Assembly: GCA_001244265.2 (NCBI GenBank)
Contig: CDLV01000005.1
Location: forward strand, 992,001-1,056,000
From: Microbotryum violaceum
Taxonomy: Eukaryota
DNA: 64,000 bases
Direction: 5' to 3'
Shown here piece after piece: positions 39,500 to 39,621 of the stretch. Every line of letters starts with the position of its first letter. Position 1 is the first letter of the stretch. The notes beneath the pieces are model-generated. The model was not told the DNA's origin and searched no databases. It was given only the letters and a program-made list of their open reading frames with translations. The translations under genes and the position numbers were made by a program.

Positions 39500-39570
39500 G
39501 GGTTATAAACTTGAAGTAGGTAGTCGTCTTGACGAATGAAGAGTTGGACTCGGTGAGTTGAGCGCTGCAC
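39500..39570 (-). repeat. 5'-truncated direct copy of the pLTR starting at the hammerhead cleavage site
   Basis: Identical to 33715-33785 (71 bp). Confidence 0.9.
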
Positions 39571-39572
39571 TA

Positions 39573-39621
39573 GCGCCTGATGAGTTTGTCCTTTGACAAC
39601 GAAACAACTGCATTGTCGTGC
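39573..39621 (+). ncRNA. Type I hammerhead ribozyme (inverted pLTR copy)
   Basis: GCGC-CTGATGA-GTTTGTCCTTTGACAAC-GAAA-CAACTGCATTG-TC^GTGC, cleavage predicted after 39617. Confidence 0.92.

Follow-up and report, generated by a model that had tools for sequence, protein, structure and literature searches.

A Penelope-like insertion of Microbotryum violaceum whose internal repeat starts at or near a predicted hammerhead cleavage site

The DNA analysed here (the window) is a 64,000-nt stretch of the Microbotryum violaceum assembly GCA_001244265.2 (contig CDLV01000005.1, positions 992,001 to 1,056,000 of the forward strand). It contains one insertion of an endonuclease-less Penelope-like retroelement (PLE) of the Coprina type, with its sense strand on the minus strand, at an interstitial site at 1.03 Mb of the contig, C3. 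The layout is that of a PLE, a partial tandem of pLTRs with direct and inverted copies, and a 3′ hammerhead is followed by a reverse-complement telomere-like repeat, as in Coprina elements. The placement in Coprina is a probable one, drawn from the host, the domain content and an excerpt of PMC8557442. The features are collected in Table 1.

Table 1. Features of the insertion, in window coordinates.
Feature	Coordinates	Strand	Basis
Whole insertion: one unit, 71-nt direct repeat and 117-nt inverted 3′ fragment	33715..39688	-	X20 empty site; both ends at the same element base
71-nt tail past the predicted cut, ending in one reverse-complement telomere-like hexamer; cDNA start	33715..33785	-	same start base in 5/5 close copies
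Type I hammerhead of the 3′ pLTR (predicted)	33786..33842	-	strict descriptor; core CUGAUGA 33826-33820, C17 = 33786
3′ UTR, AT-richer	33843..35053	-	family 3′ fragments of 464-1030 nt near the ends of contigs C4, C5, C6, C7 and C20
RT ORF, C-terminal part: RT motifs, thumb, no GIY-YIG	35054..36640	-	Pfam, homologues, alignment
Tandem duplication of 19 nt where one RT frame gives way to the other	36570..36607	-	sequence comparison; X1 contig
RT ORF, N-terminal part, DKN motif	36573..37814	-	open frame
Upstream ORF region, two open stretches (37907-38806 and 37409-37864)	37409..38806	-	open frames
Captured Ty1/copia pieces inside the 5′ UTR	38964..39391	.	match many copia copies; missing from the X20 element
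Start of the element 5′ UTR, directly after the upstream pLTR	39392..39499	-	single place in genome; X20 continuity with 38959 and with the ribozyme-bearing repeat
Internal direct pLTR copy, first base the one after the predicted cut	39500..39570	-	repeat search, descriptor, copy alignment
Junction: one untemplated base and the first inverted-copy base (GUC template), or two GUA-templated bases	39571..39572	.	copy alignment
Inverted 117-nt 3′ fragment with ribozyme core, C17 = 39617	39572..39688	+	unlike the other two copies at the 7th base from the end; X1 contig 39660-40500

The reverse transcriptase (RT) matches the Pfam family RVT_1 (E 2e-06), carries the PLE-type motif ADKNLG (DKN), and is up to 97% identical to Microbotryum proteins, its best homologues being those of Microbotryum silenes-dioicae (93-97% identity). 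The 158 RT homologues include a GIY-YIG-bearing protein. A Pfam match to GIY-YIG was found in none of the four frames scanned, while the positive control, homologue P0117, does match this domain. Between motifs A and B′ the RT has about 45 residues more than the alignment consensus; an excerpt of PMC8557442 describes an IFD-like region in Microbotryum Coprina, and the insertion lies there. The break between the two RT frames is real, because the X1 contig covering 34687-38678 shows 0 differences and 0 gaps. No significant Pfam match was obtained for the upstream ORF region. The element is defective but was once mobile. The telomeric repeat of the host is presumably TTAGGG; a triple TAACCC occurs nowhere in the whole assembly.

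Related sequencing runs were compared through their contigs, for 4 of the 24 runs listed. In X1, X13 and X14, the left flank is joined to the element, and the right end is covered from 39660 on. Run X20, whose flanks differ from this locus by about 6%, contains the empty site, observed directly: position 33711 joins 39689, with three letters between them that stand for 33712-33714. It follows that insertion involved neither a target duplication nor a deletion. X20 also contains the element. There the copia pieces are missing and 38959 is joined to 39392, which identifies 39392-39499 as 5′ UTR of the element. A second X20 joint, from 39571 to 33787, has a depth of 208.6, against 37.2 for the flank, and carries GUA. 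The 5′ UTR in X20 is therefore preceded by a whole ribozyme-bearing repeat, and so the insertion in the window is one unit plus 71 nt, followed by an inverted 117-nt 3′ fragment. The idea that 39500-39570 is an independent mini-insertion beside foreign DNA is rejected, since the neighbouring segment is 5′ UTR in X20. The 428 bp of Ty1/copia DNA at 38964-39391 comprise an LTR end (38964-39111), which begins 7 nt from the LTR 3′ end, a protease-region piece (39112-39295) and the 107-nt fold-back of the latter (39285-39391); they look like cDNA captured at a break.

The repeat anatomy can be read directly from the window. Positions 33715-33785 and 39500-39570 are identical over 71 nt (100%), as an earlier note on this DNA had described. 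The inverted arms 33715-33836 and 39567-39688 agree at 98% over 122 nt. The imperfect palindrome of about 190 bp that the note placed at 39500-39688 is also present, with 72-nt arms (39499-39570 and 39618-39689, 99% identity) and a 47-nt spacer. A strict descriptor for type I hammerheads, run on both strands of the 64 kb, found two sites, with C17 at 39617 (plus strand) and 33786 (minus strand); these are the two cuts that had been predicted, between 33786 and 33785 and after 39617. The core elements CUGANGA, GAAA and NUH are all present in the predicted hammerhead, as are stems I to III, with a stem I of 4 bp plus a distal helix and a short stem III. The inverted ribozyme had been called full; it is not, as the distal 5′ arm of stem I is missing.

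At the gathering threshold no Rfam family was found in the window, the hammerhead scoring below gathering. The constrained active fold lies 5.0-6.5 kcal/mol above the predicted ensemble; the figure is 5.2-6.5 in the native context, 6.0 in the construct 39565-39635 that had been put forward for a cleavage assay, and 12.2 in the whole palindrome. That construct presents a chimeric context, the native ribozyme being on the minus strand at about 33770-33842. Free folding is no better than that of shuffled sequences (z -0.11), and covariation signal is absent, the close copies being nearly invariant. Folding models often penalise three-way junctions. A slow ribozyme would fit read-through at the other breakpoints discussed below. 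The C17 variant GUA still obeys the NUH rule, and C17 is a position of the hammerhead core that tolerates change. A loose hammerhead pattern gave 155 matches genome-wide, against 98 in a reversed control, and among the matches listed the excess comes mostly from one other repeat.

The claim that the internal copy starts exactly at the cut depends on the template allele, because some copies match beyond it. Both in-locus copies that include C17 agree with the direct copy up to the first base past GUC and differ from it at the next base, T39571; against them the claim holds, with one extra base. Three of the five close genome copies (on contigs C5, C6 and C20, which probably record one event, since their sequences have the same 5′ break) and the X20 tandem joint have GUA instead of GUC. 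Against the GUA copies the match runs for 73 nt, through the linker "ta", so that the template accounts for both linker bases, with a 1-nt microhomology and a break 2 nt upstream of the cut. The linker itself is smaller than first described: the inverted copy (39572-39688, equal to 33831-33715) takes in A39572, and only T39571 is left unexplained. The GUC template is favoured by the base at position 60, for which the internal copy has a locus-private allele that goes with GUC in both copies (2/2) that span C17.

A GUA template could also have been copied without cleavage. The cDNA would have run 1-2 nt past the cut and switched strands through stem I microhomology, the hairpin setting both breakpoints. 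The 73-nt match to C5, C6 and C20 and the GUA of the X20 joint speak for this, as does the start of the inverted copy on the other arm of stem I, where four of six bases are alike across the junction; hairpin-centred inversions are also found in two outside elements, L093 and L145, and in the excerpt of PMC3846280. We nevertheless regard it as unlikely. The private position-60 base is combined with GUA in none of the seven close copies spanning C17 (the rows listed do not include the X20 base), a GUA ribozyme would cut the same bond, and the start at the cut in L093, described below, has no microhomology.

The genome holds, besides the one long copy, five close 3′ fragments, all near contig ends, and an old copy. 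All five close fragments begin at the terminal base found at both ends of the long insertion, each within 40 kb of the end of its contig. The C4 fragment is not followed by a telomere, and the assembly contains none; the long copy is interstitial. Relative to the cut, the other independent breakpoints are at -46, -390, -394 and -959, that is, one of five in this genome is at the cut, and the other four need RNA that read through an uncut ribozyme. The fragments on C5, C6, C20 and C7 (L050, L051, L052 and L049) each border the same subtelomeric repeat at the 5′ end. At the end of C4 (L002:1960-2058), a 466-nt family fragment is joined at its 5′ end to a copia-like primer-binding region and LTR end, with a few bases at the joint that fit both. 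A second endonuclease-less family lies interstitially at C4:705824-708151 (L054/L055), with a 776-aa open frame and 58% RT identity; in 16 kb at this place (C4:706-708 kb) no recognisable hammerhead or pLTR was found, and 2.4 kb upstream there is a 579-bp palindrome that contains a T run.

Outside this genome, 91 related loci were gathered, of which 35 have a sense-strand hammerhead; L183 and L184, two of the 16 loci of one subset, were left out as weak non-PLE matches. Non-edge boundaries numbered 13 rows. Four rows at +61, being shifted diagonals of the L093 tandem, were excluded, as were four at -12 (L100 and L174), which represent variant ribozymes with another stem II. The five informative boundaries are at -443, -356, -105, 0 and +8, so that one of five is at the cut, or one of six if -12 is counted once. 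In L100 (1710-2600) and L174, ribozyme stem II differs between the repeat copies, and the 3′ part is common to them. Fourteen loci with PLE-type RTs (L169-L182), four of them with a hammerhead, are on short contigs inside prokaryotic MAG records and are probably mis-binned eukaryotic DNA. A scan of metagenomes with a single protein returned no relatives, and neither protein nor DNA-pattern searches found any in viral contigs.

The boundary at 0 belongs to L093, an unrelated element that turned up after the cut-site prediction had been fixed. The first base of a 62-nt unit at 9896 is the one immediately after the cut predicted at 9779 (offset 0). The base preceding the unit mismatches both local alleles and is the base that comes after the tail in the tandem junction of the element itself; there is no microhomology. 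Under a uniform null of 100-500 positions, the chance of an offset of 0 is about 1-2%. The tail after the ribozyme is present in three serial copies (L093:9780-9957; 62, 54 and 62 nt); the predicted cut is where the outermost one starts, and there is a 4.4-kb palindrome at the 5′ end. The head-to-head junction of L093 (offsets -443 and -356) is at a hairpin, away from the cut. In another PLE family (L145:1802-2549 and L137:9256-9619), the direct and inverted copies meet in a short GC-rich hairpin whose loop is inverted, and no hammerhead was found in this family. Inverted junctions thus need no ribozyme.

It is conceivable that both ribozymes cut, giving a unit-length RNA, linear or circular, on which the RT would start 71 nt from the 5′ end, cross the cut by a jump or through a religated junction, copy a full unit and run off at the cut; the polymorphism of C17 would then record imprecise crossings. 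The length of exactly one unit plus 71 nt agrees with this. So do the variation of C17 here (GUC/GUA) and in L093 (UUA/UUU), the short units joined in series in L093, the old copy on C13 (L053:6915-7040), in which a deletion starts right after GUC, and the circular templates proposed in the excerpted text of PMC4209133. We hold such double cutting to be very improbable: a closed circle offers no cue for stopping on the second pass; the C13 copy, at 73% identity, has other indels as well and its ribozyme core is broken; and C17 is free to vary in any case.

Chance truncation, or an assembly artefact at the palindrome, also has to be weighed. The case was picked for its match, it is a single case in this genome, and the junction 39570-39572, spanned by no listed contig of X1, X13, X14 or X20, rests on the assembly. 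Contigs of short reads from X1, however, match 39368-39529 and 39660-40500 with 0 differences, and both palindrome arms and their differing base are present in X1. The left-flank joints and right-end coverage in X1, X13 and X14 also argue against an artefact, as the independently found L093 case does against chance, and we consider either explanation extremely improbable.

Cleavage by the ribozyme therefore likely set the 5′ end of the RNA, as the earlier note had proposed, given the break past C17 relative to the in-locus copies, the position-60 base that accompanies GUC, the upstream ribozyme in X20 and the L093 pattern. This cut-site reading, a likely one, has two cases behind it, one of them ambiguous by 2 nt. 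Among the observations that count against it, GUA explains both linker bases without an added base, most of the independent breakpoints in the genome (4/5) are off the cut, and the structure of predicted minimum energy differs from the active fold.

The inverted copy calls for a separate explanation. The note had suggested a template switch or a fold-back. After cleavage had set the 5′ end, the same cDNA might have folded back or switched to its own distal pLTR. Head-to-head pLTRs have been read in print as products of self-priming on an antisense template (PMC3846280, in excerpt), and the inverted copy and the left pLTR have the private position-60 base and GUC in common. The inverted copy, however, holds a 46-nt core that the 71-nt direct arm is without, so that local fold-back of a long cDNA cannot give it, and copying of the distal pLTR would have to halt exactly at the flank junction in an element without an endonuclease. 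At position 7, moreover, the inverted copy has the allele of C5, C6, C7 and C20, and the left and internal copies have the allele of C4, all three in-locus alleles being directly confirmed in X1 contigs; the two pLTR alleles differ in this single base, for which a later mutation or a telomerase-added primer could also account. We judge an origin from the same cDNA quite unlikely. A better fit is a switch to a second cDNA whose priming took place at the opposite end of a break. Such two-ended priming, with a separate cDNA start at the right end of the break and a subsequent joining of the cDNA ends, is suggested by the same terminal base at both insertion ends, the blunt empty site, the lack of an endonuclease and the position-7 difference; it offers the simplest account, and we favour it moderately.

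A possible course of events is as follows. A donor arranged in partial tandem would be transcribed and the upstream hammerhead would cut the RNA, which would then start 71 nt before the start of the unit, the downstream hammerhead being left uncut. At the left broken end, the RT would prime at the telomere-like hexamer inside the RNA, copy one unit plus 71 nt, and run off at the cut. The right broken end may have been primed likewise on uncut RNA, yielding a 117-nt cDNA. The two cDNA 3′ ends would then be joined head to head with one base added, perhaps helped by the self-complementary arms of stem I. For this explanation as a whole, a cleaved RNA 5′ end together with two-ended priming that repairs a blunt chromosome break, we put the chances at about even.

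Much of the setting is known, as far as the excerpts of the literature used here go: fungal pLTR hammerheads, a proposed processing role for them, and the direct-plus-inverted layout. Coprina elements (PMC8557442, PMC13159263 and PMC6431247, in excerpt) resemble the present one in an RT with the DKN motif and without GIY-YIG, in a 3′ hammerhead followed by reverse-complement telomere-like sequence, and in 5′-truncated copies near contig ends. In contrast to these, the long copy here is interstitial, has a telomere-like hexamer at both ends without a telomeric tract, and has the hexamer 65 nt past the cut. The layout of two direct pLTRs and one inverted, with a head-to-head 5′ junction, is that of endonuclease-bearing Penelope elements in the excerpts of PMC3846280 and PMC8557442; here there is no endonuclease and no target duplication, and the direct repeat starts at the predicted cut. 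The former excerpt ties the layout to endonuclease-bearing elements, with fungal endonuclease-less ones organised differently.

As here, the fungal PLE hammerheads in the excerpt of PMC4209133 have a type I core in the pLTR, but their helix III is large, whereas stem III in the window is short (4 bp, with A15.1-U16.1). The same excerpt reports self-cleavage of a fungal PLE hammerhead as a monomer in vitro and proposes a role in precursor-RNA processing, without in vivo evidence. The function of Penelope hammerheads is called unclear in the portion of PMC8557442 drawn on, and, in that of PMC11167929, no Anolis RNA reads begin or end at the cut, and cleavage is not needed in vitro. A parallel is the HDV-like ribozyme of R2, whose self-cleavage sets the RNA 5′ end and is mirrored in genomic 5′ junctions (PMC3774820, in excerpt), although ribozyme and element class are different, R2 has an endonuclease, and its cleavage was demonstrated experimentally. 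No report of PLE copies ending at a hammerhead cut was found; Gladyshev and Arkhipova 2007 and Arkhipova et al. 2017, which lie outside the literature covered, may describe such ends.

We tentatively propose that the hammerhead of an endonuclease-less PLE may cut its template in vivo, leaving copies that end at the cut, and that the RT may heal a double-strand break by two-ended priming. A copy that ends at the predicted cut base is a rare genomic hint that the ribozyme trims the RNA to be copied, although the GUA variant of the family would move that end by two bases. With genomic copies ending at the cut, the function of the hammerhead becomes a matter of counting in assemblies. An inverted layout at a blunt, duplication-free site bears on the origin of that layout and on break repair by telomerase-related RTs. 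If the proposal is true, the classic direct-plus-inverted pLTR layout would arise without an endonuclease or fold-back, possibly with jumps across the cut.
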